A stretch of 64,000 nucleotides of DNA, taken from the NCBI GenBank assembly GCA_963713615.1, contig CAVQMM010000001.1:3840877-3904876 (forward strand), read 5' to 3'. Position numbers and translations under genes: made by a program. The DNA comes from an uncultured Chlamydiae bacterium (GTDB lineage: Bacteria > Chlamydiota > Chlamydiia > Chlamydiales > JAJFMA01). Shown here one piece after another: positions 10,287-58,157 of the stretch. The notes beneath the pieces are model-generated. The model was not told the origin of the DNA, searched no databases, and saw only the letters and a program-made list of their open reading frames with translations. How positions within the stretch are numbered: the stretch's first letter is position 1; each line of letters begins with the position of its first letter.

Positions 10287-10617
10287 GGACGAAAAGGACA
10301 TAAAGAGGTGATTGCGGAAGTCCTTGCGACGCCGAAACAGCCATTAAAGCCCTCACAATCATGCTTCGGCCCGCAGCGCTTTGGAGTGCGCGTCGCTCGC
10401 GACCGCTTTGGATTTGGGCGAAGTTGGCATTGCAAGAAACGTAACCCTTCTCTCTAGGGGTAACTGTGTGTGTGTGGGGGGCAGCCTCCAAAGAACGGTG
10501 CGCGATTCAATAGGCTCACCCAAATCCAAAGCGGTCGCGAGCGACACGCACTCCAAAGCGCTGCGCGCCGGGTGATGGTTCTCAGGGCTTAGGTTAAGGC
10601 CTACCTGGCGATGCCAT
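10287..10617. repeat. Nested palindromic element family A, copy A1 (core a)
   Basis: Arms GCAGCGCTTTGGAGTGCG..TCGC..GCGACCGCTTTGG and reverse complement around core a, with partial outer layers. Confidence 0.9.
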
Positions 10618-10632
10618 AGCCGATTTGGAGCT

Positions 10633-11061
10633 TTACAATAGCTGACCATACACCAGGATACCGCCTAACGCTGCTGTTGTTGCTACTAATGCCACTAGCA
10701 CCACCAGTGCGACCAGATAGGGGCCCCTAGGAGCTTTAAAGCGCATGATCGCCGTAGCAATCATCCACACACCTGTTATCATACCTAGAGCTCGGTGCGC
10801 CAAGAAGTAGGGTTCCATTTGGGGTGAGAACGTCGCGCCCTCGCTGAAGAACCAACCTGTGATGACGGTGGGTACTACCATAATTGCGGCGACCACCAAC
10901 ATAAACTTCGCGGCATGGTCATAAAGTGGATTACGCCTCCATGAATACAAAAGCTCCGCAACGCCTGTCATTAATGCTAAGGCGATAGGAAAATGCACGA
11001 GAGCTGGATGCAGGTGTCCAATTTTTTGCATGATCTGATCATTCCAGAGGTCGCTTAACAT
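10633..11061 (-). CDS. DUF2231-like membrane protein
   Basis: HLHPALVHFPIAL N-terminal motif and four TM helices. Confidence 0.75.
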   Translation of the reverse strand: MLSDLWNDQIMQKIGHLHPALVHFPIALALMTGVAELLYSWRRNPLYDHAAKFMLVVAAIMVVPTVITGWFFSEGATFSPQMEPYFLAHRALGMITGVWMIATAIMRFKAPRGPYLVALVVLVALVATTAALGGILVYGQLL

Positions 11062-11083
11062 AATCCCTCCTAAACTTTACTGT

Positions 11084-12019
11084 TTATGCCTTCGCCTTGG
11101 GCTTGAGTACCACTAGATGATCATTTTCGAATATGACATCCCCCTTCAGAGTGATAGTATCAACGACGCTGGCGAGAATCGGACAGAGGTCCCGGCCAAC
11201 TTGTTCCGCTTCATGAGAGGGTCTCTCCACATCAATTAACAACTCCACATAGCAAAAATGCGGGTCATTTTGATCGGTGGCCAGGCCACCTTGAAAGACT
11301 GTGATCTTCGTATTTGGGTTGGCATCCAAGAGCACCACAGCCTTACCTTTGCGGGCCCATTGCGCCGATGCAGTCATTTTGGCCTGCCCACGTTCGTATA
11401 GGGTTTGACCTCTGGTAGCTTTATAGCCGTACAAACCTAGAATTTGCTCGATAGATAGGGGGGCCGTTTTGGCCATGAGTTCGGTCCAAACCCTTTTTGA
11501 TGCTCTAGAGGGTTTTCCGGGACCTAGGTAGGTAATATGAAGTGTTTCACCCTCATCATTCAAGCCTACCCAGGCTTGAGTAAAATGCACGTTGCCGATG
11601 TCACACTCTACTGCCATGACGGGAAGATTCGCCCAACGTTTGTATTCGATACGAATATTGCGTGCACCCATCATTTTAAAATTCATGATGTCGTGAGAAA
11701 AGCCCCCCTGAGTTGTTTGACTGATATTATCAGACAACCTCACCCACATCAGGCCCTTAGAAAAGTGAGCTCTTGCTTTGGCACCTTGCAAGTAGAAGTG
11801 ATTGATATCTTGTTTGGTACCCCAAAGGACTCCATCTTTGAGGTTAGGAGCTGTATCTGCGGTGTAGGGGGCGACGATGAAATCGGAGGGCAGGGCAAGC
11901 TCGACGGGCGGGGTGTGATCCAAACCTGGGAGGAAGAGCTGCACCTGGGGCTGAGAAATCGCCTGGCTGGCAAGGATGCAGAAGAGGGCGCTTAGTGCTC
12001 TAAGAGCAAAGCGATACAT
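11084..12019 (-). CDS. Hypothetical exported protein
   Basis: 311-aa ORF with a Sec-like signal peptide and GAGG RBS. Confidence 0.65.
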   Translation of the reverse strand: MYRFALRALSALFCILASQAISQPQVQLFLPGLDHTPPVELALPSDFIVAPYTADTAPNLKDGVLWGTKQDINHFYLQGAKARAHFSKGLMWVRLSDNISQTTQGGFSHDIMNFKMMGARNIRIEYKRWANLPVMAVECDIGNVHFTQAWVGLNDEGETLHITYLGPGKPSRASKRVWTELMAKTAPLSIEQILGLYGYKATRGQTLYERGQAKMTASAQWARKGKAVVLLDANPNTKITVFQGGLATDQNDPHFCYVELLIDVERPSHEAEQVGRDLCPILASVVDTITLKGDVIFENDHLVVLKPKAKA

Positions 12020-12085
12020 GGTTACCTCAGGGTTCGGTCTAAATGAGCGTTTAGACGCCTAGCCTCACCCTAACATGATATACCA

Positions 12086-12500
12086 TCATTTAACCAAGGA
12101 AAAAATCGGCCATCCCAGGGGATGGGATGGCCGAATATTACGGACTTTAGAAGCTTTAATTCTAGTGCGGGAAAATTCCAGTAGTTTCTTAGTTTGGGTA
12201 GCCAGCGCTAAATGATATAGAGCCATACAATAATAATGCGGATCGCTTACATTGGCTTGGGATTCTTCTGGCAATGTTCCCATGTAGAGAGAGCATATCT
12301 TTCACGAGTTTAGGATCATCAACAAGCATAAATTCACCGGCCGAGTTGTTTCTAGTCTCATCAGTGAATAGAGCTGCAAAATACTCAGACTCTAAGCTCA
12401 GAAAAATTTTGTGCACTGGAAATTCGACTGCTGAATGCCCGCTTCCAACCCTTAAGGTATAGTCTGTGAGAGACCTCTGGTAAGCAGGCGTGATAGACAC
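12086..12500 (-). pseudogene. BTB/POZ-domain gene remnant, frameshifted
   Basis: TDYTLRVG..FPVHKIFLSLESEYFAALF is BTB-like. It continues as (Y)MGTL..ALYHLA..KLLEF in another frame after a (CT)n run at about 12285-12294. No clean start. Confidence 0.65.
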
Positions 12501-12519
12501 ACGCCTGCTTACCAGAACT

Positions 12520-14607
12520 TTAGACAGTAAGGGTTGCTTTGCGACTGAGGCGCAGTTGTCCACGCTCATTGATGTCCAGCACCTTTACAGTGATCACTTC
12601 GCCTTCTCTAACCAAATCATGAAGGTCTTTGACTCGGTCGTTGCAGTATTCCGAGATGTGGCAGAGACCCTCTTTACCCGGGAGCACTTCCACAAACAAT
12701 CCAAATGGCACGATTGATGTGATCTTGCCGGTGTAGACCGCACCTACTTCAATCTCCGCAGTGAGACCGCGAATGATCGCTTTAGCACGTTCAATACCTT
12801 CCAGATTCGGGGAGGAAATACTAATTAGGCCAGTGTCGTCGATATCGATTTCGACGCCAGTCTGCTCGATGATGGCGCGGATCTGTTTGCCACCTGGGCC
12901 GATGACTTCGCCGATCTTGCTAGGCTTGATGCGCAACGTTTCGATACGAGGAGCGTGAGCAGGAAGGCCTTTAGGTTTGGGGCAGACTTCCAACATCTTC
13001 TTAAGGATGTGGATACGCCCTTCTTTAGCTTGCGCTAGCGCGGCTCGGATGATGTTGGGGTTAATCCCTTCGACCTTGATATCCATTTGGAAAGCGGTGA
13101 TACCATCTTGGTCTCCCGCTATCTTAAAGTCCATGTCGCCCAGAGCATCTTCGAGGCCCAGGATGTCAGACAGGATAGCAAAGTCCTCTCCCTCCAGAAT
13201 CAAGCCCATCGCGATACCAGAGACTGGACGCTTAATAGGAACGCCGGCATCCATCATGGCCAAGCATGCGCCGCAGACAGAAGCCATGGATGAAGAACCA
13301 TTGGATTCTGTGATATTGGATTCCACGCGAACGATATAAGGGAATTCCTCTGAGGAAGGAAGTGCAGCCATCAGAGCACGTTCGGCAAGCTTACCATGTC
13401 CCACTTCGCGTCGGCCTGGGGCGCCCACGCGGCCAACTTCACCTACGCTGAAGGGCGGGAATGAATATTGCAGGTAGAAACGATGCGACCCTTCGCCGTC
13501 GAGGGTTTCAAAGCGCTGAGCCATGCTGGCTCCGCCCAGAGTACACACCGCCATGGCTTGCGTTTCACCGCGAGTGAACAGGCTGCAACCATGTGTACGA
13601 GGTAAGAGACTCAGCTCAATGTCAATATTTCGGATGTCTTTCGTGCTGCGACCGTCACTGCGCAGACCCTCTTTTAGGATCATTTTACGGAGGATGGATG
13701 ACTGCAGTTCTTTGAAAGCCTTGGTAACTTCCATCGGCTTGTGCTTGGGCTTCACTTCGCCTTCTGGTAGAAGAGCCTCAACAACGGCTTGCTTGATTTC
13801 TGCCACGGCGTTTTCGCGCTCTTGCTTTTTAGGAATACGCAAGACGGCTTCCAAGCGTGTTTTGGCGTGAGTGGCTACAGCATCATGCGTTTCTTTGGCG
13901 GGCTTTTCAATAACACCTTTTTTAGGCTTGCCGATTTGTTCGCGCCATGCGGTAAGGGCATGACAGATTGTCTTAATCGCTTCATGACCCGCATCAATTG
14001 CTGCAATGACTTGCTCTTCAGTTAAAAAGTCGCAATAGCCCTCGATCATTAAAACAGCGTCTTCCGTTCCAGCAATCATGAGGTCTAACTGCGATTTTGC
14101 CTGCTTCTCGGGAGAAGGGTTGATGACAAACTTACCATCGATCATACCGACTTGAACAGCGCCGATAGGTTTAATCAGAGGAATATCAGAAATCACTAAG
14201 GCAGCTGAGGCCCCGCAGATCGCCAAAGGAGCGGTGTTAACCGTACCATCAAACGACCATACATAGGAAAGAAGCTGCACGTCATGGTGGTAGCCCTCGG
14301 GGAACATCGGACGAATCGGGCGGTCGATGAGGCGGCATGTTAAAGTCTCACGCTCTGTTGGCCGACCTTCTCGTTTAAAGAAACCACCAACAGTTTTACC
14401 GGCGGAGGAGAATTTTTCTTGATAATCGACCCGAAGAGGAAGGAAATCGCAGTCGGGTGTCGGTTCGGGGGCTGCACAAGCTGTGTTGAATAATACAGTT
14501 TCATTGCAGCGAAGTAGGACCGCGCCGTTAGCTTGCCGTGCGATTTTTCCAGTCTCAAAATAGAGCTCGGTGTCGCCGACTTGCAGGGTAAAGGTATGAC
14601 GTTGCAT
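12520..14607 (-). CDS. pnp: Polyribonucleotide nucleotidyltransferase
   Basis: FETGKIARQANG, RLIDRPIRP, ESNGSSSMASVC and DMDFK motifs; KH and S1 domains. Confidence 0.98.
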   Translation of the reverse strand: MQRHTFTLQVGDTELYFETGKIARQANGAVLLRCNETVLFNTACAAPEPTPDCDFLPLRVDYQEKFSSAGKTVGGFFKREGRPTERETLTCRLIDRPIRPMFPEGYHHDVQLLSYVWSFDGTVNTAPLAICGASAALVISDIPLIKPIGAVQVGMIDGKFVINPSPEKQAKSQLDLMIAGTEDAVLMIEGYCDFLTEEQVIAAIDAGHEAIKTICHALTAWREQIGKPKKGVIEKPAKETHDAVATHAKTRLEAVLRIPKKQERENAVAEIKQAVVEALLPEGEVKPKHKPMEVTKAFKELQSSILRKMILKEGLRSDGRSTKDIRNIDIELSLLPRTHGCSLFTRGETQAMAVCTLGGASMAQRFETLDGEGSHRFYLQYSFPPFSVGEVGRVGAPGRREVGHGKLAERALMAALPSSEEFPYIVRVESNITESNGSSSMASVCGACLAMMDAGVPIKRPVSGIAMGLILEGEDFAILSDILGLEDALGDMDFKIAGDQDGITAFQMDIKVEGINPNIIRAALAQAKEGRIHILKKMLEVCPKPKGLPAHAPRIETLRIKPSKIGEVIGPGGKQIRAIIEQTGVEIDIDDTGLISISSPNLEGIERAKAIIRGLTAEIEVGAVYTGKITSIVPFGLFVEVLPGKEGLCHISEYCNDRVKDLHDLVREGEVITVKVLDINERGQLRLSRKATLTV

Positions 14608-14875
14608 TAAAAATAGCTCCTCATTGTCGTAATAGAAATCATTGTCTTGACAGGAGGAGAGGTGTGAGCGACGGGCTAGGAAAGGCCTATGTCCTAGGAC
14701 CTAAGGGGCTAACTCCCCTCTTCCATAAGAGTCTATGACACATATAGTGTCAGCGGTAGAGGCTCTAAGAGAAGCTACGAGAAATAGAATTCAGAAAGCG
14801 CCATTTGAAAGCTTATATAAAGCTCGCCTCAAAGGGAGTTCTCTGACTTCTATGTCTGACGACTCTTGTCCTCGC

Positions 14876-14910
14876 AAAAAACGGAAGGCAGTTGCACCTG
14901 CAACTGCCCC
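14876..14910 (-). terminator. Probable intrinsic terminator / hairpin after rpsO
   Basis: GGCAGTTGC-AGGT-GCAACTGCC stem followed by TTCCGTTTTTT on the minus strand. Confidence 0.65.
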
Positions 14911-14919
14911 TGAAGTCTT

Positions 14920-16531: not shown

Positions 16532-16534
16532 ACG

Positions 16535-17282: not shown

Positions 17283-17290
17283 CGTCTAAA

Positions 17291-17847
17291 GGACCAAAGG
17301 GACATAAAAGACATAAAGAGGTAATTGCAGAAGTTCGGTTTCTCGAAGTCAATTTTCGAGAATCGGATGCCAGTGAAAGAAGGGTCGATACTGCAACAGA
17401 CCATGGCATCGCCACATAGGCCTCAACCTAAGCCCTCACAATCGTATCTCGGCGCGCAGCGCTTTGGAGTGCGTGTCGCTCGCGACCGCTTTGGATTTGG
17501 GTGAACTAGGCATTGCAAGAAACGTAACCTTTCGCTCTAGGGGTAACTGTGGGGGTTTAAGCCTCTAAAGAACGGTGCGCGATTCAATAGGCTCGCCCAA
17601 ATCCAAAGCGGTCGCGAGCGACACGCACTCCAAAGCGCTGCGCGCCGAGATACGATTGTGAGGGCTTAGGTTGAGGCCGATGTGGCGATGCCATGGCCTG
17701 TTGCAATATCGACCCTCGGGCCTGGGAATCGATTCTCAAAGGCTCAAATAATTCTGCAATTACCTCTTTTAGTTGGAGGGGAAGATGTGTTCAAAAAATG
17801 TGCAAAGTCCAGCTTTATGTCCTTTCCGTCGCTTTGGGCCTTTGGTC
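17291..17847. repeat. Nested palindromic element family A, copy A2 (core a, all layers)
   Basis: GGAC-rich flank > GAGGTAATTGC..GCAATTACCTC > GGGTCGATA..TATCGACCC > TAGGCCTCAACCTAA..TTAGGTTGAGGCC > GGAGTGCG arms > core a. Confidence 0.92.
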
Positions 17848-17873
17848 AGTCCACAAACGATACGAAATCGTTA

Positions 17874-19871: not shown

Positions 19872-19935
19872 CTTCGTGCCCGTGTGCTTGCCCTTGCCCC
19901 TGCCCGATGTCATCCTCCCTATTCTGCCCCCTTCC
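19872..19935. repeat. Family C half-element
   Basis: TTCGTGCCC..CCCCTGCCCGATGTCATCCTCCCTATTC matches the arm at 24700-24770. Confidence 0.7.
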
Positions 19936-19995
19936 TTCCTTTTGTTACGAATTTGTAACCCCACTAACGCCTTGTTACTTGGAAGTGCATTTTCG

Positions 19996-20383
19996 GGTTC
20001 TTGGGAAAAATTGGGGGCGCTTTGGAATCACAATCGTCACTCGACGCGCAGCGCTTTGGAGTCATAGGCATCAACTTAAGCAACTAACTGCGCCCTCACA
20101 ATCGTATCTCGGCGCGCAGCGCTTTGGAGTGCGCGTCGCTCGCGACCGCTTTGGATTTGGGCGAGCCTATTGAATCGCGCACCGTTCTATGGAGGCTGCC
20201 CCCCCCCCACAGTTACCCCTAGAGAGAAGGGTTACGTTTCTTGCAATGCCAACTTCGCCCAAATCCAAAGCGGTCGCGAGCGACGCGCACTCCAAAGCGC
20301 TTCGCGCCGACTGACGATTATGACCCCAAAGCACCCCCAATTCTTCCCAAGAACCCATTTTCGTCGCTTTGGTCCTTTAGTCC
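19996..20383. repeat. Nested palindromic element family A, copy A3 (core a reversed, different outer shell)
   Basis: GGAGTGCG arms and core a lie inside a GGTTCTTGGGAA..TTCCCAAGAACC shell; an extra partial arm is at about 20045. Confidence 0.88.
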
Positions 20384-20426
20384 ATCTAAGAGCACCGCAC
20401 TTCTTCACAAGAACCATTCTTCTTAC

Positions 20427-30990: not shown

Positions 30991-31668
30991 GTGTTCCAGG
31001 GGTTTTCAGCGGCGGACGCGAGTCTGGCCGAGGAAGAAGATCAGAGGCTCTACGCCTTGACACAGATCGAGCGAACAGAGCGCAAGAATGGTTATGCCAT
31101 TATTGCGGGTGTTGATGAGGCTGGCAGAGGGCCTTTGGCTGGTCCTGTGGTGGCGGCAGCGTGTATTATTCCTCCCAAACTTCATGTATGTGGTGTTGAC
31201 GACAGTAAGAAATTACCAGCGGGTCAACGTCGCAAAATCTTTGAACGTTTAGTCAATGATTCTCGTATTATTTATGCAGTTGGTATTGTCGCGGTTGACG
31301 AAATTGATAGCATTAATATCTTTCAAGCTACTATCCGCGCGATGTTGCAGGCGGTAGATGGCTTGGCCACTATTCCAGATCTATTGCTTGTAGATGGTTT
31401 AGCGTTACCACACCCGACATTGGCGTGTCGGAAGGTTATTGGTGGCGATGCTCTATCGCAGTCGATTGCTGCTGCATCGATTATCGCCAAAGAGACGCGT
31501 GATGATCTGATGCGTGCTTATCATGATGAGTGGCCTGTTTATGGCTTTGCTAAGCACAAGGGATATGGTACACAGCAGCATCGCGAGGCTATCCAGGAAC
31601 ATGGACCCTGCCCCATTCATCGTCGCAGCTTTGAACCCCTTAAGTCCATGTTAGTGACAATTGGCTAG
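30991..31668 (+). CDS. rnhB: Ribonuclease HII
   Basis: [28 protein letters not shown] and KHKGYGT motifs. Confidence 0.95.
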
Positions 31669-32071
31669 CGCACCGCTTTGCGGTGCAGGGATATTTTGCG
31701 CAATACCAGGGGTTGCTAGCGCTTCGCGCTTTAGCACCCCTGGCTACCTACCGGTAACCGCTTCGCGGTTTAGGAAAATACATGCGGCTAGGCAACAATG
31801 GAGGGACGTTTTGTGCCATACCAGGGGTTGCTAGCGCTTCGCGCTTTAGCACCCCTGGCTACCTACCGGTAACCGCTTCGCGGTAACAATATCGGTGTGG
31901 TAGTCAAAAATCATGAACCGGGGGTCGCCTCCGGTGCATTGTTGCCTAGTCGTACGATTATCCTAAACCACGAAGTGGTTATCGGTAGGTAGCCAGGGGT
32001 GCTAAAGCGCGAAGCGCTAGCAACCCCTGGTATGCACAAAAATGTCCCTGCACCGCAACCGCGGTGCGCTA
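31666..32071. repeat. REP cluster family D (left of transposase)
   Basis: 38-bp palindrome CCAGGGGTGCTAAAGCGCGAAGCGCTAGCAACCCCTGG with a GTAG foot at 31706, 31821 and 31993; both cluster ends read TAGCGCACCGC. Confidence 0.92.
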
Positions 32072-32524
32072 GTCGAAGAGGTATCGCTCATCAACCTGGA
32101 TCTGATGAACCTTTAACAACCCCCGCATTTCATCTTCGAATGTTTTGGTTTTGTGGTGATGCTTTTGGTTCGCGATATAAGCTTGCACGACATCGGTGTT
32201 CGACTTGCTAACGCTGAAGGCGCCATATCCTGATTGCCACGAAAAAGCGTTCAAACCAGGTATTTTTGATCTAATCATCTTTGTTGTACTGATCTTAATG
32301 TCCCTTACCATATTGGGAATGTGATTATCTGGACTAGTACGCACAAGAAGGTGGATATGATCTGACATACCACCCATTTGAATGGCATCAACCTTTCGAT
32401 GACGAGCCAATCCACCAATATAACGAAAGAGACTCTCTTCAAAGGCTTCTTGTATCAGGGGAGCACGGTTTTTTGTTGACCAAACCAAATGAAAAAAAAG
32501 AGCGCTATATGTTGTCATTGACAT
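32069..32524 (-). mobile_element. tnpA: IS200-family Y1 (HUH) transposase, REP-associated (RAYT/TnpA-REP-like)
   Basis: HLVWSTK, HUH motif DHIHLL, WQSGYGAFSVS and catalytic YIANQ; flanked on both sides by REP clusters; no tnpB. Confidence 0.9.
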
Positions 32525-32590
32525 GTCGTGGTTGAGAACTACTCGTCAGGCACAAATGTTACAAATGGTTTGTTTAAAATACAAGTTATA

Positions 32591-32889
32591 TAGCGCACCG
32601 CTCTGCGGTGCAGGGACGTTTTTGTGCATACCAGGGGTTGCTAGCGCTTCGCGCTTTAGCACCCCTGGCTACCTACCGATAACCACTTCGTGGTTTAGGA
32701 GAATACATGCGGTTAGGCAACAACATACCAGGGATGGCTACCTATTGGTAACCGCTTCGCGGTAGCAATGGTTACAACATCCTAAACCACGAAGTGGTTA
32801 CAGACAGGTAGCCAGGGGTGCTAAAGCGCGAAGCGCTAGCAACCCCTGGTATGCACAAAAATGTCCCTGCACCGCAGCGCGGTGCGCTA
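32591..32889. repeat. REP cluster family D (right of transposase)
   Basis: Same 38-bp palindrome at 32631 and 32812, a collapsed copy at about 32728, and TAGCGCACCGC ends. Confidence 0.92.
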
Positions 32890-36216: not shown

Positions 36217-37152
36217 GTGCTTTTTTGGAGGCTAATGAAAGAAAGCGGTAAATGGCAGGTAGCGGTAGCTTTGGCGGACCTGCGACGCGAACCATTGGAA
36301 GCTAGAGGCTTTCAACAACGCGATGCGCTTCAGGAAACTCAACTCCTCTTTGGTGAAGAAGTGCGCGTATTGGAGTTGCTGGGGCCTTGGGCGCGTGTCG
36401 AGGCTACAGAACAGCTGTACTTTAACGCCGATGGTCGTTGGCAGGGGTATCCTGGATGGATATTAAGAGACCAACTTGTGGAAGTAGCAGAGATTAAGAC
36501 ACCTAATATAGTGGTTCATGCCTATAGTACACTTCTTCAGGGACAACCCAACTTTCAGATGTTATTTGGTACACGTTTACATGCCGAAAATTATCCTGCC
36601 CGCGGAGAGTGGCAACAAATCGCTCTGACTGATGGACGTTCTGGAGCGGTGGCCACATCGGCGGTTAGTCCACTCGGTCGGACGTATTTGCCAAACGTCC
36701 TATGGGATAGGGCCACACCATTTTTAGGTACATCTTATTTTTGGGGGGGATGTAGTTCGAACTTGCAGCAGGCTGGATGGCCGAGATCAGGAGTCGATTG
36801 CTCCAGCTTGATGCATTTATTATATCGGACTATGAACGTTTCTTTACCGAGAAATGCGCATGATCAGTGGTTGCACTGTAAAAAGATCGCATCTCACCAT
36901 GTTAAGGAAGGAGATCTTGTCTTTACGGCTCCTTGCGAGAGAACAAGTCGGATGGATCATGTGATGTTATATGTCGGAGAGGAAAGGCTGCTTGAAGCAT
37001 CTTTGTCCGCCGGGATAGTGCGTTACATCACCTTCAAGGAAAAGCTAGGTCTAACCTTGGAAGAAATGCGGATGGGAAAGCAGCCGAATGATGTTGTGGT
37101 TGGGTTTGGACGTGCAGAGGACAGGTTTTTACCCCCTTCTAAGCCCTCATAA
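36217..37152 (+). CDS. SH3 + NlpC/P60 peptidoglycan-peptide endopeptidase (YkfC-like)
   Basis: ETQLLFGE, YFWGG, GVDCSS, LPRNA and HVMLY motifs; start may be ATG 36235. Confidence 0.88.
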   Translation: MLFWRLMKESGKWQVAVALADLRREPLEARGFQQRDALQETQLLFGEEVRVLELLGPWARVEATEQLYFNADGRWQGYPGWILRDQLVEVAEIKTPNIVVHAYSTLLQGQPNFQMLFGTRLHAENYPARGEWQQIALTDGRSGAVATSAVSPLGRTYLPNVLWDRATPFLGTSYFWGGCSSNLQQAGWPRSGVDCSSLMHLLYRTMNVSLPRNAHDQWLHCKKIASHHVKEGDLVFTAPCERTSRMDHVMLYVGEERLLEASLSAGIVRYITFKEKLGLTLEEMRMGKQPNDVVVGFGRAEDRFLPPSKPS

Positions 37153-37392
37153 TCGTATCTCGGCGCGCAGCGCTTTGGAGTACGTGTCGCTCGCGACCGC
37201 TTTGGATTTGGGCGAGCCTATTGAATCGCGCACCGTTCTTTGGAGGCTTAAACCCCCACAGTTACCCCTAGAGCGAAAGGTTACGTTTCTTGCAATGCCT
37301 AGTTCACCCAAATCCAAAGCGGTCGCAAGCGACCGCACTCCAAAGCGCTGCGCGCCGAGATATGATTGTGAGGGCTTAGGTTGAGGCCTATG
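37140..37392. repeat. Nested palindromic element family A, copy A4 (core a reversed)
   Basis: GCCCTCA-AATCGTATCTCGGCGCGCAGCGCTTTGGAG arms around core a. Confidence 0.92.
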
Positions 37393-42988: not shown

Positions 42989-44197
42989 ATGACGGTGTCT
43001 AAAATGAGCATATATAAGATGTTATGTGTGGCTTTAATAGCCGGTAGTACTTCCTTGGTAGGTTTTACAGATACTTCTCAAAGTCCAAAAGATGACGGCG
43101 ATACTGGACCCAGCGGGAGCAGTGGTAGCTGGACATCGGATCAGTCATCTGGTAGAGGTGTAGAAGATGACAACGACAACAACAGTAATGGCCAGTATTT
43201 AGGCCGAGACCAAGCCAACAATCAGAGAAACTCTGACCGGGGTGGCTACTATTATCAGCAAAATCAAGCTGCTGATCAGGAAACAGGTCGTTATACAGGT
43301 GATAACAAGGCTGACGACCGGTATCAAAATCAAGCTGCCGATCAGGAAACAGGTCGCTACCAAGGTGATAACAGGGCTGACGGCCGATATCAGCAAAATC
43401 AAACTGCTGATCAGCAAGCAGGTCGCTATCAAGGTGATAACAGAGCTAACGACCGTTATCCACAAGGTAGTAATGATAACCGAGATGACCGCCGTTATCG
43501 CGGTTATGGTCGTTCAGATGACTATGCAAATAATGACAATGAGGGACGCTTTAGACACAATCGAGCCTATGGACGTGGCTTCGGTTGTGGTGGTCAATCT
43601 TGTGGGAACTTAGGCGGTTGCAGCTCTTGCACACCCTACTATTCCGCAGGTTGCTACCGGGATGAGGGTTCCTACAGAGGGCATTATGGTCATCGCTGGA
43701 ACATGCAAGGCGCTCGAAACCAAAACAATAACTACCGACATGGATGGAACGATAACCAACAACAAAATAATGACTACCGACATGCACGGAACGATAACCA
43801 ACAACAAAATAACAACCAGTTTCAGACTGCACGGTTGAACCAGAATCAACAACAAAATCGACAAAACCAGCAGCAGATAGCCTTAAACGATGCTCAAGGC
43901 AACAGCAGTCAAAATGCTAATCAACCACGCAACGCGATGAATAGATCTCAGAACAACAACGGTGACAATCAAGCTATGATGGATCCAAATCGTAAACTAG
44001 CAGACAAAGTGCGTGTGATACTGAACAGGGACAGCTCGCTTTCTCCAAGCGCATTGCATGTTCAGATCATTGCCGACAACGGCGCTGTTACTCTGAACGG
44101 TGTTGTTGAGAATGACGCTGAAAAAAGCAAAGTAGAATCACTTGTGAAGAGAGTTGATGGCGTGAAGAGTGTCACCAACAACCTGACGACTAAATAG
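42989..44197 (+). CDS. Exported N/Q/D/G-rich protein with C-terminal BON domain
   Basis: Signal peptide, internal repeats, Cys cluster and VTLNGVV..VDGVKSVTNNL BON motif. Confidence 0.85.
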   Translation: MTVSKMSIYKMLCVALIAGSTSLVGFTDTSQSPKDDGDTGPSGSSGSWTSDQSSGRGVEDDNDNNSNGQYLGRDQANNQRNSDRGGYYYQQNQAADQETGRYTGDNKADDRYQNQAADQETGRYQGDNRADGRYQQNQTADQQAGRYQGDNRANDRYPQGSNDNRDDRRYRGYGRSDDYANNDNEGRFRHNRAYGRGFGCGGQSCGNLGGCSSCTPYYSAGCYRDEGSYRGHYGHRWNMQGARNQNNNYRHGWNDNQQQNNDYRHARNDNQQQNNNQFQTARLNQNQQQNRQNQQQIALNDAQGNSSQNANQPRNAMNRSQNNNGDNQAMMDPNRKLADKVRVILNRDSSLSPSALHVQIIADNGAVTLNGVVENDAEKSKVESLVKRVDGVKSVTNNLTTK

Positions 44198-46331: not shown

Positions 46332-47783
46332 TCATACTGGCATCACAGGGATGATGATAGCGCCGTCTTTTGTATAATGAATTTCTCCCCAAGAGGTCTC
46401 AACCTTTTTGTGGCTGCGTGGGGCAGAATAGTCGCCGATGATTTGACCAAAATCTACGCGTTCACGATAGTCACAGGGCGAAGGTATATCGTGAATGGGC
46501 TGTCCCTTGCCGGCAAATTTTTTGAGTAGTCCATTAGCATCGTGATGGGTGAATGTGCACCGGTTGCCTTTGCGCTTTCCTGATGCCACGATTCCCTGGC
46601 GTTTTTGATCTATGATGGCGTTCTCAAAATAGCTACAGCGTTTGGCAAAGTGATCCGACGCTGCAACCTTCAGAAATTCTTCGTCAGTAGTCATGGCCTC
46701 AAAAAGGCATGTAGCATTCGCTTCGTGGAGAGTTCTTTGTATTTGAGCTCCTTGTAACGTCAGAGGCAAGCTGAAGATCTCTACTCCATATTTGCTAAGG
46801 AGCTGCCCCAAGGCTAATCCTCGATCTTGTTCGGTCATTTTGCTGAAGTTTCGGTGCAAATGGCGAAGGTTCGGATCACAGACTTCTAGTTCACTAGGGG
46901 AGGATGTTTTCGGAATGGTGGCAATAACCGCTTGTAGGCAGGCGTTAGCAAAATGGTTCATCGCATAAGTAGGTATATCAGTGGTTCGCCATAGGATTTG
47001 ATTGATTCCTCGTAGTGAATAGCAGCGTGAAGAGATGAAGCTGCCGTTAAGCGATTTTCTAAGGCCTATTTGTAACCCGCTAGCGAATTCTGGAGATGCC
47101 TTCAGAGGCATGTTTGCTAGTTGTTCGGCTTTCTCGGACTTCAAGAAGTCAGACAAGGCATCGTCATAGGCTCCGGATTCAAAATGCGCCACCGCTCGAT
47201 GGTACAGGGCTTCCTTGTCAGCGGTATTAGATAATACAGTAATAGCTTTGGAGTAGTCTAACAGGGTGTTATGCGACGCTGCAAGCATAAGGCGTACTTC
47301 GGCATCTACAGCGCTGGTGCCTGCACAATAGGCTGTAAGATCGCAGGCGCAACCTGCGTAGTCACCATTGTCATAGCGGAGATGCCCACGTCCAAGATAG
47401 GCTCCTGTATGCCTATGTTTGCTGAGACACTCTGTATACAGGGCATCAAACGCATTGGAGATGTCTTGCCATCCCTGCAGCAAGATGTCAGTTCCGGGTG
47501 CTTCACAGTAGGCTAAAAATTCCTTCAGCACCTTAGATAGGTCGGAATAGGTGTTTTTGTAGAGAACCTGCTTGTGTGCGAGCTCGCGCGGCCGTGAGGT
47601 ATAGGTCTGCCGAAAGAGACGTCCTCCGGCCTTATCGGCTTCGTAAAGGGCGTTTGCGACACGGTCTTGCGCTGCATAAATTTGCTGACCATGCTGCGTA
47701 CAGAATTTGGTCGCTGCAGCTAGGGGGGGAAAGCAACCTATCGCGCTTGCTAGAAACCACACAAAGATCCGGTATTTCATCAT
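46332..47783 (-). CDS. Exported TPR-like protein with C-terminal Ntox50-like domain
   Basis: Signal peptide; TPR-like AYLGRG and ALYHRAVAHFESGAYDDALSDF; tip LLKKFAGKGQ..RERVDFGQIIG..IHYTKDGAIIIP. Confidence 0.7.
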   Translation of the reverse strand: MMKYRIFVWFLASAIGCFPPLAAATKFCTQHGQQIYAAQDRVANALYEADKAGGRLFRQTYTSRPRELAHKQVLYKNTYSDLSKVLKEFLAYCEAPGTDILLQGWQDISNAFDALYTECLSKHRHTGAYLGRGHLRYDNGDYAGCACDLTAYCAGTSAVDAEVRLMLAASHNTLLDYSKAITVLSNTADKEALYHRAVAHFESGAYDDALSDFLKSEKAEQLANMPLKASPEFASGLQIGLRKSLNGSFISSRCYSLRGINQILWRTTDIPTYAMNHFANACLQAVIATIPKTSSPSELEVCDPNLRHLHRNFSKMTEQDRGLALGQLLSKYGVEIFSLPLTLQGAQIQRTLHEANATCLFEAMTTDEEFLKVAASDHFAKRCSYFENAIIDQKRQGIVASGKRKGNRCTFTHHDANGLLKKFAGKGQPIHDIPSPCDYRERVDFGQIIGDYSAPRSHKKVETSWGEIHYTKDGAIIIPVMPV

Positions 47784-49728: not shown

Positions 49729-50533
49729 GGACAAACTGGACTGATTGGACAAAATGAGGTAATTGCCAAATTATTTGGGCTCTCATGGATCGATTCTTTG
49801 AAAAAAAAATCACTTTTTTTTGTGAGAAGGCGATTCTGGAGAGCTTAAGTGGTATGGCACTATCCAATCTGGAAAGACAGGCTTTTCTCCCTTCCCAGGC
49901 CCGAAGGGTCGATATTGCAACAGGCCATGGCATCGCCATGGTATATGCCAGGAAGGGATTTCGCAGTCTGAAGGACTGCTACAAGACGCCAGTTTACAAA
50001 CACCATTTATGCATGCGCTTTATGGCAGCCCTACAGGCTGCTAAAACCGTTTTGGCATATACCATGGCGATGCCACATAGGCCTCAACCTAAGCCTAACA
50101 ATCGTATCTCGGCGCGCAGCGCTTTGGAGTGCGGTCGCTTGCGACCGCTTTGGGTTCCTTGCGACGGTCGTGTGCAACGGCATCACTATAATTCCCTAAG
50201 GGTAAAATAGTTAGTACATGCAGCCTTCGACGAATCCATACAATGCCGTTTAGCATTGCCGTCCCAAGGAACGAAAAGCGGTCGCAAGCGACCGCACTCC
50301 AAAGCGCTGCGCGCCGAGATACGATTGTGAAGTCCTAAGTCATTGAGATATAAGCTCAAAAGACCTGTTAGGTTGAGGCCTATGTGGCGATGCCATGGCC
50401 TGTTGCAATATCGACCCTTCGGGCCTGGGAAGGGAATGACTCTCTCTTCACCGGCATCCGATTTTCAGGAAATTGACTTCGGAAAATCGGACTTCTGCAA
50501 TTACCTCCTTATGTCCTTTTTGTCCTTTAGTCC
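49729..50533. repeat. Nested palindromic element family A, copy A5 (core b plus 148-bp module)
   Basis: GAGGTAATTG 49756 to GCAATTACCTC 50507 (752 bp) with five nested IR layers. Confidence 0.93.
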
Positions 50534-53694: not shown

Positions 53695-53851
53695 ATTTAC
53701 CGAATCTTAATAAAAATTGATTGTAATTCACGAGCTTGGTATATTAGCTGGACGCTAGTTGCCCACTGTTGAATTTCAATTGATTTCGCGGTGTAAGACA
53801 AATTTTATTTTAGATGGAAGTCAAAGCTGTTTATTATAAAATTTATTATTA

Positions 53852-53880
53852 TTGCAATTAATATGCTGTTTTGATATGAT
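53852..53880 (+). promoter_or_regulatory. Sigma66/70 promoter
   Basis: TTGCAA-N17-TATGAT in an AT-rich region. Confidence 0.65.
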
Positions 53881-53929
53881 TATTGCTTTGGAAACACATA
53901 TTAAAACAATATTTCATTAGGAGAAAACA

Positions 53930-55594
53930 ATGGAACATATATTAAGTGTCTGTGGGAGTCTGGTTTCGAACGCAATTTCGTGGAGAACCCCAGCCAGCAA
54001 CAATCTGATAGTAGAAAGTCTGGAGGCCAAAGCAGCGCGACTAGAAGCCGAAATGGATGACTTTGTGAATGATGATGTGGTAGTGCCTGTCGGCAGTGCC
54101 TTATATGTACCGGTCATAGCTCAGTCTATTTTGAGTTGCGATGCTACGAAGGCTGAACAGCTGTACGGTTATGCACTTGAACTATCTGCTGAAGTTAAGA
54201 AATTAACCGCTGAAGAAAAAGTAGAACTAAAGCCTCAGTTCATTCAGGTATATACCGCTTTGCGTCAACTCCAAGAGACTTTTAAAGCAGATAGCGCTTC
54301 AGCAAACAAGCAAACACAACAAGCCATTACCAAGGCGATAACAGCACTAAGACAAAGTGAAGTTTATCTTTCAGATCATTTGGCAACTCTATGTGGATTT
54401 GCAAGTCTTGCGGACAAGATCGTTATGGGTGAGAGCAGCTCCCCTGAGGGTCAACTTCTAGTGGTCGACAAGGGAATATTAGCATTTAGTGACAAATCAG
54501 ATGGTAATGGTCAACAATTAGCTCTGAAGCGTTTGAAGAACGTTGAGACGGCGCTCAAAAATGAAGATGCTTGCGCTCAGCTAACGGATAACCAACTGCT
54601 GCAGATGAAACTCACGATCAGCTGGACCATGCTAGCCTATCTCTCTCAACAAAAGACAGGCTTGGACTTGGTCGAGCATAGTTTTGAAACGCTATTTCTG
54701 ATGAATCAACAGCTGAATGCCATTTTGGCAAAAAGAAAGGATCTCGACGTCGATGCTGATTTAGTAACATCTCTAGCTTTGGTCGTTGATCAAATTCAAA
54801 CTCTTTATTCCGACGACTTTTGGGTGGATGCAAAGCATGGTAACCAGTTGAGAAATATTGAACCTTTTGTCGCTTCTCTTCTTAGCTTTATCGGTAATTC
54901 CAACCAGGTAGACCTTGCAGGACTGACCTTTTTGCATCGCGACGATGCAAACGGTATCGCGCTTTTTGAAGCACCAGAGGTGGAAGGTGAGAAAAACTAT
55001 GTAGCTCTCTTCTTCGGACGTGATGGGGTTGTCAGTTATTACGATCCACGACAAAGTCGAAATCCAAACTTTGATTTGGGTGGACTAGGTCATGATCCCA
55101 TCTATCAAAGTGCTGGGCCAGCAAGTGCTGCATTTGAACTTTTGATGAAGGAAAAGGCAGACAAGAGTAAACCATTTAAGCTGACTACGGCTGGATTTGG
55201 CGTTGATGGTGCTGTGGGTCAAATGGTGGCCTTTTCTCAGGCCATTGCAAACCCAGATAGCAAGATAGTCTCTTGCTGTGTGGGTACGGCACCTTATCTT
55301 GAGCTTAACGCATCGGAAGCAATGTTGCGTCAGAAGAATTTGTACGGAATTAATTTCCAGCTAGTCGGAGATACTTTAACAAAGCCAAGCGCTTTCAGTA
55401 CCTATGCTGCAAAGAAATATAGCGAGACTAACTGGGAGCTTAACCTGCCGTTGTATAACCGTGACTGGTTCATGAGTGACTCTTTGACCCGTGGGCACGA
55501 TGCATCCATCTACCGTGAAAAAGTACAAAGAGCTGTAAAACAACCGCAGCAGCTGCTTCAGGTGCGTGATGAGCTTAGAACAATCATTGGTTAA
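53930..55594 (+). CDS. Hypothetical protein with degenerate class-3 lipase-like C-terminal domain
   Basis: LGGLGHDPIY, KLTTAGFGVDGAVG (GHSLGG position), CVGTAPY, GDTL and a terminal H follow lipase-3 topology. Confidence 0.55.
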   Translation: MEHILSVCGSLVSNAISWRTPASNNLIVESLEAKAARLEAEMDDFVNDDVVVPVGSALYVPVIAQSILSCDATKAEQLYGYALELSAEVKKLTAEEKVELKPQFIQVYTALRQLQETFKADSASANKQTQQAITKAITALRQSEVYLSDHLATLCGFASLADKIVMGESSSPEGQLLVVDKGILAFSDKSDGNGQQLALKRLKNVETALKNEDACAQLTDNQLLQMKLTISWTMLAYLSQQKTGLDLVEHSFETLFLMNQQLNAILAKRKDLDVDADLVTSLALVVDQIQTLYSDDFWVDAKHGNQLRNIEPFVASLLSFIGNSNQVDLAGLTFLHRDDANGIALFEAPEVEGEKNYVALFFGRDGVVSYYDPRQSRNPNFDLGGLGHDPIYQSAGPASAAFELLMKEKADKSKPFKLTTAGFGVDGAVGQMVAFSQAIANPDSKIVSCCVGTAPYLELNASEAMLRQKNLYGINFQLVGDTLTKPSAFSTYAAKKYSETNWELNLPLYNRDWFMSDSLTRGHDASIYREKVQRAVKQPQQLLQVRDELRTIIG

Positions 55595-55640
55595 AAAATT
55601 GGGGAACTTTAGGGAATTTTAATAAGTAAGAGGCTAAAAA

Positions 55641-57281
55641 ATGTCATTTTTAACACAAATCTATAACGTAGGGGCATCGTGGTTTGGAGGTAGCAGCAAA
55701 GCGACTTCAGCCCCTGTGCGTCCTACGCAGACTAAGCCACCGGCTACTAAAGTTAAGGTATGCCTTAACACGATTGGCCGTACGGTCGAGAAAGCGACAG
55801 TTGTTGTTGGGAACAAAGTTGACCAAGCTGCTAACGATGTGGCAGGCAAGGTCAACAGTGTTCGTAACACAGTTGAAGAAGTATGCACTTCAGTCAAGCA
55901 AAAGGTTGCTACTCGAACAAAAGAAGGGCAGCTGAAGCATGAACGTAATGTATTTTTATATTATCTGGCATGCTCTAAAGGCAAACTTGAAATGTACCCG
56001 GCAAAAGACATCGCTGTAGCGGTGGATTATTGCGTGGCTCAAGCTAAGAAAGGCAATCTTTCCGACAAAGATAAGGCGGATATCCGCTTTTTCTTTCTGG
56101 ACAAGTTGTCTTCCATGCCTGAAGACAAGTTCAATCGAAGATTGTTGCTAGGTGGTAAGGATGCGCTTCAGCGTATCATTTCGCCCGAGCTAGACAGACT
56201 TTTGACTGAGCAAGAGCAGAATCCTTCACTCAAAGACAGCAAACAGCATCAGTTGGATATCGCGGTAGCGCGTGCACAGCTAGCTGTAGGCGTCGGAGCA
56301 GGGACTTCTAGAGCGGGTGGATGCAACGGTGCTGTCATCGTGAAGAGTCTAGAAGGAAAGGCCGTAGGCGTCTTCAAGGCTCCTCCCAGCAACGCTGGTT
56401 TTGATCCAGCGCGTCAAGTCAAAGCATGGTTTGGTCAAGCGCGTCTTTTCAACCGAGAAGACAAGATGAACGAGCCATACTCTGAAGTGGCTATGCATTA
56501 CTTTGACGAAGTGTTCGGGTTTAACCTGGCCCCAGCAGCGAAGCAAGTTGAGTTAAAGGACGAATCAGGGGCCTTTTTGGCTTTCTTGGGCGGCTATAAG
56601 GAACTTGCTGATGTCGTTGAGGACCTCAATAAGCGCGACTCCTTCGAAAAAGATGAGCTGATTAAGTGGCAGACTGCCATGGTTGCTATCTTTGCATCTC
56701 TGAATTTTGACCCACATGCTGGTAATATCTTTGTTCAAATGGACAAAGGTCAGCTGAGTGGCTTGAAGATCATTGATGCAGGTAACAACTTTGCTGCAAG
56801 ATTGCCAGGCGAATGGGGAACAAAAGGTCACCGTAGTGAGCCAGGCGATCTGGCGATCTCGAAGAAGCCTTTTGAGCCTGAAGTCATCGAGTTCATCAAG
56901 ACACGTTTGACTGAGGAAAACCTCAATAGCTTTATCGCGAAGGTAAAAGCTGATCGTCCAGACTTCTGGACTGCAGAAATGGATGTTCTACATCGCCAGA
57001 CCTTGCAGATCGTTCGCAAGAACGTTGCTAATGGGATGATTGCATCTCCTTTTGAATTGCTAAACATTCTGACGCCTGGTCAGTATGCCGAGCAGAAAAA
57101 GGTTGCTGCGATGATGGACGACTGGACTATCGTGGACATCGGTGATGACGAAGCTGAGATGGTTAAGAACGCTGCAGTAGTGGTGAAAGCCCCTTCAGTA
57201 GCTCCTTTAATCATCGAAGACTACGTGACAGGAGCTGACTTTAAGCTTCCTGGAAGCCAGTCTGTGGCTGTATCAGCTTAA
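55641..57281 (+). CDS. Phosphatidylinositol 3/4-kinase-like (type II PI4K-like) protein
   Basis: GCNGAVIVK, VGVFKAP, SEVAMHYFD..FNLAP, catalytic NFDPHAGN and IDAG. Confidence 0.75.
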   Translation: MSFLTQIYNVGASWFGGSSKATSAPVRPTQTKPPATKVKVCLNTIGRTVEKATVVVGNKVDQAANDVAGKVNSVRNTVEEVCTSVKQKVATRTKEGQLKHERNVFLYYLACSKGKLEMYPAKDIAVAVDYCVAQAKKGNLSDKDKADIRFFFLDKLSSMPEDKFNRRLLLGGKDALQRIISPELDRLLTEQEQNPSLKDSKQHQLDIAVARAQLAVGVGAGTSRAGGCNGAVIVKSLEGKAVGVFKAPPSNAGFDPARQVKAWFGQARLFNREDKMNEPYSEVAMHYFDEVFGFNLAPAAKQVELKDESGAFLAFLGGYKELADVVEDLNKRDSFEKDELIKWQTAMVAIFASLNFDPHAGNIFVQMDKGQLSGLKIIDAGNNFAARLPGEWGTKGHRSEPGDLAISKKPFEPEVIEFIKTRLTEENLNSFIAKVKADRPDFWTAEMDVLHRQTLQIVRKNVANGMIASPFELLNILTPGQYAEQKKVAAMMDDWTIVDIGDDEAEMVKNAAVVVKAPSVAPLIIEDYVTGADFKLPGSQSVAVSA

Positions 57282-57308
57282 TGCTGTCGCTTTAGACATT
57301 AGTTCTAT

Positions 57309-57348
57309 ATCGAGTAACAGAGTTCTCTCTGTTACTCGATTTTTTTTT
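57309..57348 (+). terminator. Intrinsic terminator
   Basis: Perfect 14-bp stem ATCGAGTAACAGAG-TTCT-CTCTGTTACTCGAT followed by a T-run. Confidence 0.9.
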
Positions 57349-57355
57349 GCTGAAT

Positions 57356-58157
57356 GGACTGGACGAATTGGACTGATTGGACGAAATGGACTTATTGAGG
57401 TAATTGCAGAAGTCCGATTCTCCGAAGTCAATTTCCTGAAAATCGGATGCCGGTGAAGAGAGAGTCATTCCCTTCCCAGGCCCGAAGGGTCGATATTGCA
57501 ACAGGCCATGGCATCGCCATGGTATATGCCAAAACGGTTTTAGCAGCCTGTAGGGCTGCCATAAAGCGCATGCATAAATGGTGTTTGTAAACTGGCGTCT
57601 TGTAGCAGTCCTTCAGACTGCGAAATCCCTTCCTGGCATATACCATGGCGATGCCACATAGGCCTCAACCTAACAGGTCTTTTGAGCTTATATCTCAATG
57701 ACTTAGGACTTCACAATCGTATCTCGGCGCGCAGCGCTTTGGAGTGCGGTCGCTTGCGACCGCTTTTCGTTCCTTGGGACGGCAATGCTAAACGGCATTG
57801 TATGGATTCGTCGAAGGCTGCATGTACTAACTATTTTACCCTTAGGGAATTATAGTAATGCCGTTGCACACGACCGTCGCAAGGAACCCAAAGCGGTCGC
57901 AAGCGACCGCACTCCAAAGCGCTGCGCGCCGAGATACGATTGTTAGGCTTAGGTTGAGGCCTATGTGGCGATGCCATGGTCTGTTGCAATATCGACCCTT
58001 CGGGCCTGGGAAGGGAGAAAAGCCTGTCTTTCCAGACTGGATAGTGCCATACCACTTAAGCTCTCTAGAATCGCCTTCTCACAAAAAAAGGTAACCTTTT
58101 TTCCCGAGAATCGATTCTCAAGGGCTCAAATAATTTTGCAATTACCTCTCGTTGTCC
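57356..58157. repeat. Nested palindromic element family A, copy A6 (inverted relative to A5)
   Basis: GAGGTAATTG 57397 to GCAATTACCTC 58148 (752 bp); mostly the reverse complement of A5. Confidence 0.93.

Follow-up and report, generated by a model that had tools for sequence, protein, structure and literature searches.

Results

Six composite elements in the window

The window, which is the whole stretch of DNA analyzed, is 64,000 nucleotides in length. Homolog labels agree with the phylum Chlamydiota, and the host genome is probably that of an environmental chlamydial lineage. The six intergenic elements reported by the first-pass annotation were all present: A1 (10287-10623), A2 (17290-17853), A3 (19988-20385), A4 (37140-37392), B1 (49729-50525), and B2 (57351-58157). 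Core a is found in four copies (A1-A4) and core b in two (B1 and B2), as previously described. The two cores are unrelated, and common ancestry was rejected on a global alignment z of 0.9. Judging from their sequences, at least five gene-less repeat families, unrelated to one another and each having ends of its own, are stacked in the six elements. From the outside inward, the order of the layers is G repeats, T-MITE, W-Y-W REPIN, K cassette, and X REPIN.

B2 shows this order. Its left G repeats, 9-bp GGAC units that host the T-MITE, occupy 57351-57396 (no strand assigned). The T-MITE (57397-58148, + strand; TIR GAGGTAATTGCA) is 752 bp long including K and has not retained its 4-bp duplication; its arms are Z1 (57409-57468) and Z2 (58017-58137). 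Within T lies a W-Y-W REPIN (57469-58016, + strand) composed of W (57469-57521), Y (57523-57642), and W (57964-58016), the right W hairpin of which is broken by the K cassette. K is a 309-bp IS4/IS231-type MITE (57657-57965, + strand; TIR CATAGGCCTCAACCTAA) between 11-bp direct repeats (57646-57656 and 57966-57976), and it contains spacer D (57674-57711) and an X REPIN (57712-57944, + strand) with core b (57767-57889). Single-stranded folding, a check suggested by the first-pass annotation, gave -270 kcal/mol for B2 (z -34). A promoter scan at B2 remained at the chance level. Element pieces were found in contigs of an RNA run, which by itself is no evidence of expression.

B1 has left G repeats at 49729-49755 (no strand assigned) and a right arm at 50508-50525. 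They enclose a T-MITE on the - strand (49756-50507) with W (49888-49940), Y (49942-50061), and W (50383-50435). The K cassette (50076-50384, - strand) sits in the Z1-side hairpin with 11-bp direct repeats on both sides, and the X REPIN with core b (50097-50329) is inside it.

Concentric inverted-repeat shells had been proposed for all six elements; this symmetry holds for A2, but not for B1 and B2, which represent the common form: in these, the 120-bp Y hairpin is present on a single side and K sits off-centre. A2 is the only symmetric copy. It consists of left G repeats (17290-17317, no strand assigned), a diverged T-MITE without Y (17318-17766, + strand), and a K-type cassette without D (17415-17682, + strand) that carries an X REPIN with core a (17437-17660). 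This no-Y, core-a form is rare, being found once among the 66 K cassettes that lie in W hairpins, and the cassette is likely a recombinant, its flanking 11-mers being inverted. A matching 4-bp duplication was lost in all three complete T elements of the window (A2, B1, and B2).

The outer shell of A3 is different, as had been noted. It is an ISL3-derived MITE (shell S, 19996-20355, + strand) between copies of an 8-bp duplication (19988-19995 and 20356-20363). Its contents (20029-20322, + strand) are a partial X arm (20029-20062), E (20063-20092), and an X REPIN with core a (20097-20322); E is an IS4-type end, and E ends show 10-bp duplications elsewhere. Shell S shares its TIR with an autonomous ISL3 element (three copies; NF033550, 293 bits), and the 8-bp duplication is present in four of the seven S pairs, A3 included.

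A1 and A4 are partial or chimeric. A1 (+ strand) combines G repeats, a T-subfamily left end (10305-10352), an X REPIN with core a, the K right end, and half a W hairpin, and adjoins the stop codon of FtsH. A4 (- strand) contains an X REPIN with core a (37148-37370) and one K end (37376-37392); the TAA stop of the ORF at 36217-37152 (NlpC/P60) comes from A4.

Extent in the genome and reliability of the assembly

A BLAST search with the six elements returned 426 merged loci covering 134,256 bp, or 3.4% of the genome. Motif counts in the real and shuffled chromosomes were 491 and 11 for X, 281 and 0 for W, 231 and 0 for K, and 420 and 51 for T. Whole units also occur as tandem arrays. Shells were found empty and with other cargo, and cores were found free, which supports the earlier proposal that non-autonomous elements are nested by insertion in a combinatorial manner. 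The condition named in the first-pass annotation as refuting that proposal, shells that never occur alone or in other combinations, does not apply.

We consider it extremely unlikely that the stacks are artefacts of assembly. Among the contigs examined, none covers a whole element plus both flanks, and this part of the check for assembly mosaics is in favor of an artefact. On the other hand, short-read contigs of other runs cross the module junctions, and the depth of the elements is about 20-100x that of the flanks; both results argue against a mosaic. The duplications are locus-specific, the haplotypes are diverse, similar stacks are present in other genomes, and a tandem-array joint was seen in two runs. 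The search for empty alleles in other runs yielded no usable case; the joint at 19927-20286 consists of short sides and filler.

G repeats and the T-MITE

The G layer consists of 9-bp GGAC/GTCC repeats, which flank four-helix-bundle genes at C1:1850780 and 3217610 and also occur gene-less, as 70 inverted doublets, 44 of them without T. A strict G pattern was detected downstream of 15 and upstream of 11 of 24 four-helix-bundle loci (background, 1.6%). The four-helix-bundle genes may be tied to the G repeats, by association only. Four-helix-suffix genes were counted by eye in 9 of 13 genomes with at least five T hits, against 24 of 300, with one genome unscored; this co-occurrence is confounded by kinship and genome size and was given no weight.

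T is a MITE of approximately 430 bp with the TIRs and the fixed-length (4-bp) target duplication of MITEs of DDE-type insertion sequences. The duplication is exact in 44 of 118 T pairs (shuffled, 6.4; maximum, 13), while 47 pairs, among them all three complete window copies, are without it. The target consensus is G(A/T)C-N6-G(A/T)C, matched by 29 of 40 rebuilt targets. A total of 188 of 346 non-coding perfect target sites fall within 9.2 kb of G arrays, and at least two GGAC/GTCC are present within 34 nt of 159 of 269 T ends (background, 1.2%).

No T transposase was detected at nine examined DDE_Tnp_1 sites (32 hits) of the T-bearing genome, which also gave no DDE_Tnp_1_6 match, and DUF772 was absent from five T-rich genomes. 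The same result was obtained at 36 metagenome loci, 50 + 30 loci of relatives, 71 viral loci, plasmids, and 19 DDE loci of five relatives; a transposase may be concealed by fragmented assemblies.

The W-Y-W REPIN

W and Y flank a low-copy IS200-like Y1 gene (C1:3243331-3243843; motif Y---Q--HH; subclass 1.2), and W-Y-W is the REPIN of this gene, carried by T. T arms adjoin 251 of 281 W REPs. The 81 oriented T elements comprise 34 with W-Y-W only, 29 with K on the left, 9 with K on the right, 4 double-Y, 2 no-Y, 1 double-K, and 2 empty forms, and the direction of Y is kept in most of them.

The K cassette

K is inserted off-centre in the left or right W hairpin in either orientation (14:14 on the left and 5:4 on the right). 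Exact 11-bp direct repeats bound 70 of 92 facing K pairs (shuffled pairing mean, 23.2; maximum, 33). Eight distinct sequences are duplicated at K, including single-copy hairpin variants found on both sides, and the W 11-mer adjoins 176 of 188 c-type ends. Since flanks are inverted in 8 of the 92 K pairs, recombination is also needed.

The K TIR, CAT-------AA--TAA, fits the IS231 end pattern, and the E type duplicates 10 bp; IS231-type ends and a repeat length of 10-12 bp are tabulated in Table 1 of PMC2266710. TIRs of the same type bound IS4 transposases above the NF033592 cut-off in a congener (G003), another genome of the same order (G061), and a Gemmataceae MAG. Two queries revealed no IS4 partner in the K-bearing genome.

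Identity is 99.6% for K, 93% for the T backbone, and 86% for core a. On the T tree, K placement shows no clustering (31 changes versus 32.5 when shuffled; 56 of 200 shuffles were as low), 57 of 72 rows being kept once tandem neighbours were dropped. Because K placement is unlinked to the T backbone and K is younger, we favor repeated K insertion with some recombination. Gene conversion could scatter K in a similar manner because the T tree is weak, with good support for 5 of 51 branches, and the backbones look mosaic.

The X REPIN, its cores, and RAYT

X, the REPIN carried by K, is present at a high copy number in extragenic positions (117 complete inverted doublets). A connection to REP sequences and RAYT had been suspected and was supported: X arms flank a RAYT gene (C1:3256585-3257178; NF047646, 83.9 bits against a cut-off of 80) with an HYH motif and a proline-rich N-terminus, both of which, by eye, are like those of subclass 2.8. 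The 5' GTAG/GTGG tetranucleotide is absent from the X family, the tag of which is GGAG. GGAG-tagged palindromes were found at 17 of 20 homologous RAYT loci, one of them in the genome analyzed (shuffled, 5 of 400). The X layer thus works like a REPIN with a variant GGAG tag.

Cores a and b are the spacers of two REPIN lineages linked to two RAYT loci. The ends of core a match the inner flanks of the intact RAYT (z 9.7 and 7.5), and those of core b match the inner flanks of a frameshifted RAYT paralogue (z 5.8-8.1). Cores are swappable, as had been claimed, in the form of whole cassettes, but not singly: each core remains paired with its own kind of arm (175 of 177 typed arms for core b and 113 of 141 for core a). 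Core b is in one orientation in all 64 copies inside K, which ruled out independent core flipping there, and 82 of 99 core-b copies sit in K. Free X ends have T at -1 in 40 of 44 cases and C at -2 in 32 of 44. Cleavage by TnpA-REP at CT is described in PMC8266576, and these ends are compatible with it; since CT is also present in RAYT-side arms, this signature is not independent proof of cutting by RAYT.

Related genomes and other insertions

Similar stacks are present in other genomes of the same order, and the full composite was not found in 60 relatives, with 0 of 3 congeners positive. T-type MITEs in G repeats are empty in two congeners, and those of G359 and G319 carry the REPIN of the local Y1 gene (90-96% in G359). 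Since the G359 T arm is homologous to Z2 of the present genome (z 8.8) and its cargo to W, this recurrence may reflect shared descent rather than convergence. X or W hairpins host IS66 (17 of 18 copies), IS1634, and IS110, and the composite is broken by these three and by a 160-bp MITE.

Discussion

Origin of the stacks

We consider it highly likely that these stacks of unrelated gene-less families grew by repeated insertion of one family into the hairpins or repeats of another. A T-MITE would have picked up a single W-Y-W REPIN and carried it to G(A/T)C-N6-G(A/T)C sites, with 9-bp G arrays supplying target sites for T at every step. An IS4-type MITE would have captured one core-b X REPIN to become K, which would then have inserted many times, in either orientation, into the 11-bp centres of the left or right W hairpin. 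RAYT would move X REPINs independently, with ends at CT, and recombination between copies would yield the forms with no Y or a double Y, among them the symmetric A2. The shells appear concentric because inverted-repeat elements land in and duplicate palindromic targets.

The first-pass annotation proposed a single element that inserts into its own centre, in the form of one RAYT-driven REP/BIME system that swaps its cores. Two of the layers are indeed REPINs of HUH Y1 genes, and the insertion of REPINs into REPINs is reported in PMC3116915. However, the layers differ in their ends, cognate genes, and target duplications (4, 8, or 10-11 bp, or none). The TIRs of K, T, and S are of the DDE type and come with duplications of 11, 4, and 8 bp, respectively; S corresponds to an ISL3 and K to an IS4 element. 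K is off-centre, and the cores keep their arms. Self-targeting is largely refuted by the distinct duplications, and we regard it as very improbable.

Alternatively, one or two founding nestings may have been diversified by recombination, gene conversion, and inversion among hundreds of copies. Mosaic T backbones, reciprocal no-Y and double-Y forms, the eight K pairs with inverted flanks, and tandem arrays of whole units are in line with such a history. Nevertheless, K occupies four placements while the direction of Y is constant, whereas inversion through the W arms would flip Y. Rare hairpin variants are duplicated on both sides of K, a double-K copy exists, K is far younger than T, and core b is uninverted in K despite 55-bp arms. 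Recombination as the main source of variety is, in our opinion, quite unlikely.

The third possibility is that selection keeps the stacks as RNA or DNA structures, such as terminators, mRNA stabilisers, or nucleoid sites. This explanation is compatible with growth by insertion. Nearly all stacks are intergenic, T(W) elements are convergent in 28 of 87 cases versus 207 of 1054 large gaps (on rough gene calls), and X palindromes score as terminator-like. The failure to find the composite in relatives and congeners, and its free disruption by IS66, IS1634, IS110, and the 160-bp MITE, speak against selection, which we consider unlikely. Most probably, the elements are selfish DNA that the genome tolerates in intergenic positions.

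Implications

REP abundance can stem from hitchhiking, as indicated by the MITE location of 251 of the 281 W REPs and of 82 of the 99 core-b REPINs. Models of REPIN populations usually assume copying by RAYT; hitchhiking consequently affects inferences on REPIN dynamics and RAYT function. The genome also provides potential enzyme substrates: candidate REPs of a GGAG-tagged RAYT group and of Y1 subclass 1.2, as well as repeat families linked to four-helix-bundle and GxxExxY genes. Moreover, a likely chlamydial lineage can devote more than 3% of its genome to such repeats.

We tentatively envision a recurring food chain of non-autonomous elements in environmental chlamydiae, although we are inclined to doubt it: REPINs would spread mainly as the cargo of DDE-MITEs aimed at the hairpins of other families, while Avd-like four-helix-bundle proteins would move the outer layer as a new REP-like system, and GxxExxY nucleases would run systems in parallel. 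Throughout the order, a single heritable composite replicator would then be the joint product of several enzyme classes.

Comparison with known systems

Searches of the freely accessible literature on chlamydial (including Parachlamydiaceae) REP, RAYT, and MITE sequences, on nested MITE/REP elements, and on four-helix-bundle and GxxExxY genes revealed no description of such a stack architecture. Inverted REP doublets with spacers in hundreds of copies, and the flanking of a single-copy HUH Y1 gene (by X and W), are shared with REPINs/BIMEs and RAYT (PMC3116915, PMC6006769, PMC8266576). In contrast to those systems, most copies here are inside DDE-type MITEs, and the tag is GGAG instead of GT[AG]G. 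REPIN-into-REPIN insertion is described for five unordered clusters in P. fluorescens SBW25 (PMC3116915), whereas approximately 90 ordered stacks are present here. W and V fall within Y1 subclass 1.2, a subclass described as generally without terminal secondary structures.

K shares CAT..AA..TAA ends, a 10-11-bp duplication, and passenger DNA with IS4/IS231 and MIC231-type cassettes (PMC2266710). However, its passenger is a REPIN rather than a gene, its target is the hairpin of another element, its host is not Bacillus, and two queries found no cognate transposase in the genome. The IS66, IS1634, and IS110 copies in X/W hairpins resemble the REP-targeting IS621, IS1594, and ISPpu9 (PMC3184786, PMC8450116), but the targeting elements here are also non-autonomous, carry REPs, and form five-deep stacks. 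REP doublets embedded in other repeats are also known as REP dimers in longer palindromes and in the mosaic intergenic arrays of Neisseria (PMC3733652), the hosts of which, as described there, are not broken down into MITEs that have duplications and nest in a fixed order. The layers belong to known kinds.

Results

The six elements described in the first-pass annotation (A1 to A4 with core a, B1 and B2 with core b) exist as stated there. The window covers C1:3840877-3904876 of a genome of 3.97 Mb in three contigs; in a BLAST search of this genome, the elements matched 426 merged loci totaling 134,256 bp. We divided the elements into modules, which were then annotated over the genome; from the outside to the inside, the layers are G (9-bp GGAC/GTCC repeats), T (a MITE), W-Y-W (a REPIN), K (a MITE), and X (a REPIN). 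The layers are different families and the nested elements are real. Since modules occurred alone and in many combinations, the alternative that shells never occur singly or otherwise combined does not hold.

The T layer is a MITE whose target is palindromic. Among 118 facing pairs, a set that also contains some false pairs and members of tandem arrays, 44 had an exact 4-bp duplication (6.4 under shuffling, maximum 13), four a 5-bp duplication, and 47 none; the 4-bp duplication was absent from all three complete T copies in the window. T ends lay 5 nt past G(A/T)C (G in 226, A/T in 236, and C in 240 of 269), and G(A/T)C-N6-G(A/T)C fitted 29/40 rebuilt targets. The G arrays (9.2 kb) hold 188 of the 346 perfect non-coding target sites; thus, this simple rule of target choice accounts for the outer shell. 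T shells mostly carried W-Y-W, and also X, R, or V REPINs (R and V being further REP families), or were empty. A T transposase was not found among the loci examined in this genome, relatives, metagenomes, viruses, and plasmids.

The GGAC/GTCC flank is a 9-bp repeat that adjoins both four-helix-bundle genes. It forms 70 inverted doublets, 44 of them without T. Around homologous genes in the order, a strict pattern counted G-type repeats downstream at 15/24 loci and upstream at 11/24 (background 1.6%). The outer shell of A3 is the TIR of an ISL3 element with three genome copies, and A3 bears an 8-bp duplication. Two GxxExxY genes (C1:1855069-1855536 and 1921694-1922134) each have their own flanking inverted repeats; one family of GxxExxY-linked repeats has 159 motif matches genome-wide and a related type has 55.

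K, a 309-bp segment bounded by CATAGGCCTCAACCTAA ends, is an IS4-type MITE. Exact 11-bp direct repeats bordered 70 of the 92 facing pairs (mean 23.2 and maximum 33 when the pairing was shuffled); four others had up to two mismatches, eight were inverted, and ten were of other types. The duplicated 11-mer is the W hairpin centre (176/188 ends), and single-copy variants of it occur on both sides of K. The K end agrees with the IS231 pattern and repeat length (Table 1 of PMC2266710). IS4 transposase genes lie between identical or similar TIRs in a Gemmataceae MAG, the congener G003, and another genome of the order, G061; two queries found no such transposase in this genome. The TIR pattern was present in 18/301 genomes of the order (control, 0), in which short elements so ended often lay within other palindromic repeats.

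W and Y lie on either side of an IS200-like Y1 gene (C1:3243331-3243843); this gene has the motif Y---Q--HH, as described for Y1 subclass 1.2 (PMC6006769). The V family (window 31666-32889; 29 motif matches genome-wide) flanks a Y1 subclass-1.2 gene (window 32069-32524, minus strand), and one T-MITE, at C1:3816692, holds a V REPIN. The R family is a GTGG-tagged palindrome with 148 matches (e.g., C1:1755746), and both K and T shells carry it as cargo; no partner gene was found for it in this genome. Two RAYT-like genes (C1:1465781-1466815 and 1580931-1581932) resemble TIRYT/subclass 2.1 in their DnaA-like C-termini and in the inverted repeats GGGGTCAG.

The X arm consists of GGAG, T, and a GC-rich palindrome, and lies on both sides of a RAYT gene (C1:3256585-3257178) that scored above the NF047646 cut-off. 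A homolog was present in 22/300 genomes of the order. GGAG-tagged palindromes with differing stems occurred at 17/20 fetched RAYT loci, one being that of this genome (shuffled, 5/400). Named homologs of this RAYT are labelled Chlamydiae and Parachlamydiaceae, which is consistent with the phylum originally assigned. Free X REPINs ended in T in 40/44 cases and in CT in most, which agrees with published CT cleavage by groups 2 and 3 of TnpA-REP (PMC8266576); RAYT may have produced these ends in the same way.

The two cores are unrelated to each other. The ends of core a match the inner flanks beside the intact RAYT gene, and those of core b match the X-variant inner flanks of its paralogue, a frameshifted second RAYT near C1:2876.6 kb (C1:2876.5-2877.1 kb); the cores are therefore spacers from two REPIN lineages. 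The cores had been regarded as swappable. However, core b showed a single orientation relative to D, the spacer in K (64/64 K copies), and remained paired with its own type of arm; only 1 of the 66 K cassettes in W hairpins contained core a, and K ends also surrounded R or GxxExxY-type repeats. The unit of exchange is the whole REPIN or cassette. Most copies of W and core b are passengers because 251/281 W REPs adjoin T arms and 82/99 core-b copies lie inside K.

Several other features were noted near the elements and elsewhere. A1 begins immediately past the FtsH stop (window 10286-10287), A4 provides the stop codon of an NlpC/P60 ORF (window 37140-37152), and a terminator-like hairpin lies immediately upstream of B2 (window 57309-57340). 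Tandem 66-69-nt coding repeats (window 43236-43460) lie in a BON-domain protein, and a 483-aa ORF (window 46332-47783, minus strand) matches Ntox50 (bacterial toxin 50) at its C-terminus (E 7.8e-12). A 160-bp MITE has 130 short copies, 108 with 8-bp duplications; its 444-aa partner (C1:1074398-1076015) had no NCBIfam match and is possibly an unclassified transposase. The 16-mer catalogue also contained a 32-bp repeat in 32 copies that resembles a CRISPR repeat.

Discussion

The first-pass annotation proposed repeated self-insertion. K is younger than its host T because K copies are 99.6% identical and T backbones 93% (core a, 86%). Among the 81 of 118 T pairs that could be oriented, 34 held W-Y-W only, 29 had K on the left, nine K on the right, four a double Y, two no Y, and one a double K, while two were empty. 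The two K orientations split 14:14 for left and 5:4 for right placements, Y direction was mostly constant, and differing K placements sat on near-identical backbones. On a tree of 57/72 backbones (tandem neighbours left out; 5/51 branches well supported), K placement changed 31 times vs. 32.5 when shuffled, and 56/200 shuffles were as low. Two observations speak against pure insertion: T backbones appear mosaic, and the inverted-flank no-Y and double-Y forms require recombination through K. A2 is truly concentric, as proposed, but it alone among the window copies is so, and it belongs to the recombination-type (no-Y) forms.

At C1:476526, 1173286, 2273505, and 2600817, between five and nine whole T(W-Y-W) units stand in tandem with short G spacers; these arrays are superficially CRISPR-like, and a tandem-array joint was seen in two other sequencing runs. 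Stacks also carry additional IS66 (17/18), IS1634, and IS110 layers. Contigs from peat and soil runs crossed module junctions, including the IS66 junction, with much higher depth over the element; none covered a whole element.

The stack plan recurs in other genomes. Two congeners have empty 165-168-bp T-type MITEs within G repeats. In G359, G319 (both of the same order), and one metagenome contig, a T-type MITE inside G repeats carries a Y1-linked REPIN; in G061 and G196, also of the order, such MITEs hold X-like, G, or GxxExxY-type repeats. The G359 case may reflect shared descent because its arm and cargo are homologous to those of this genome; a short comparison of the G319 arms found no homology past the TIR. 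With eight candidates per genome scored, none of 60 relatives yielded the complete B2 composite; three had matches of 25-44 nt.

The accessible text of PMC10969869 and bioRxiv 10.1101/119735 does not mention Chlamydiae. We found no description of such an ordered stack of five families, nor any of REPs from Parachlamydiaceae, in the freely readable main-text literature searched. The separate ingredients of the stack are known, namely, REPIN-in-REPIN clusters (PMC3116915), REP dimers within longer palindromes (PMC3733652), IS elements that target REPs (PMC3184786), and the passenger DNA of IS231 (PMC2266710).
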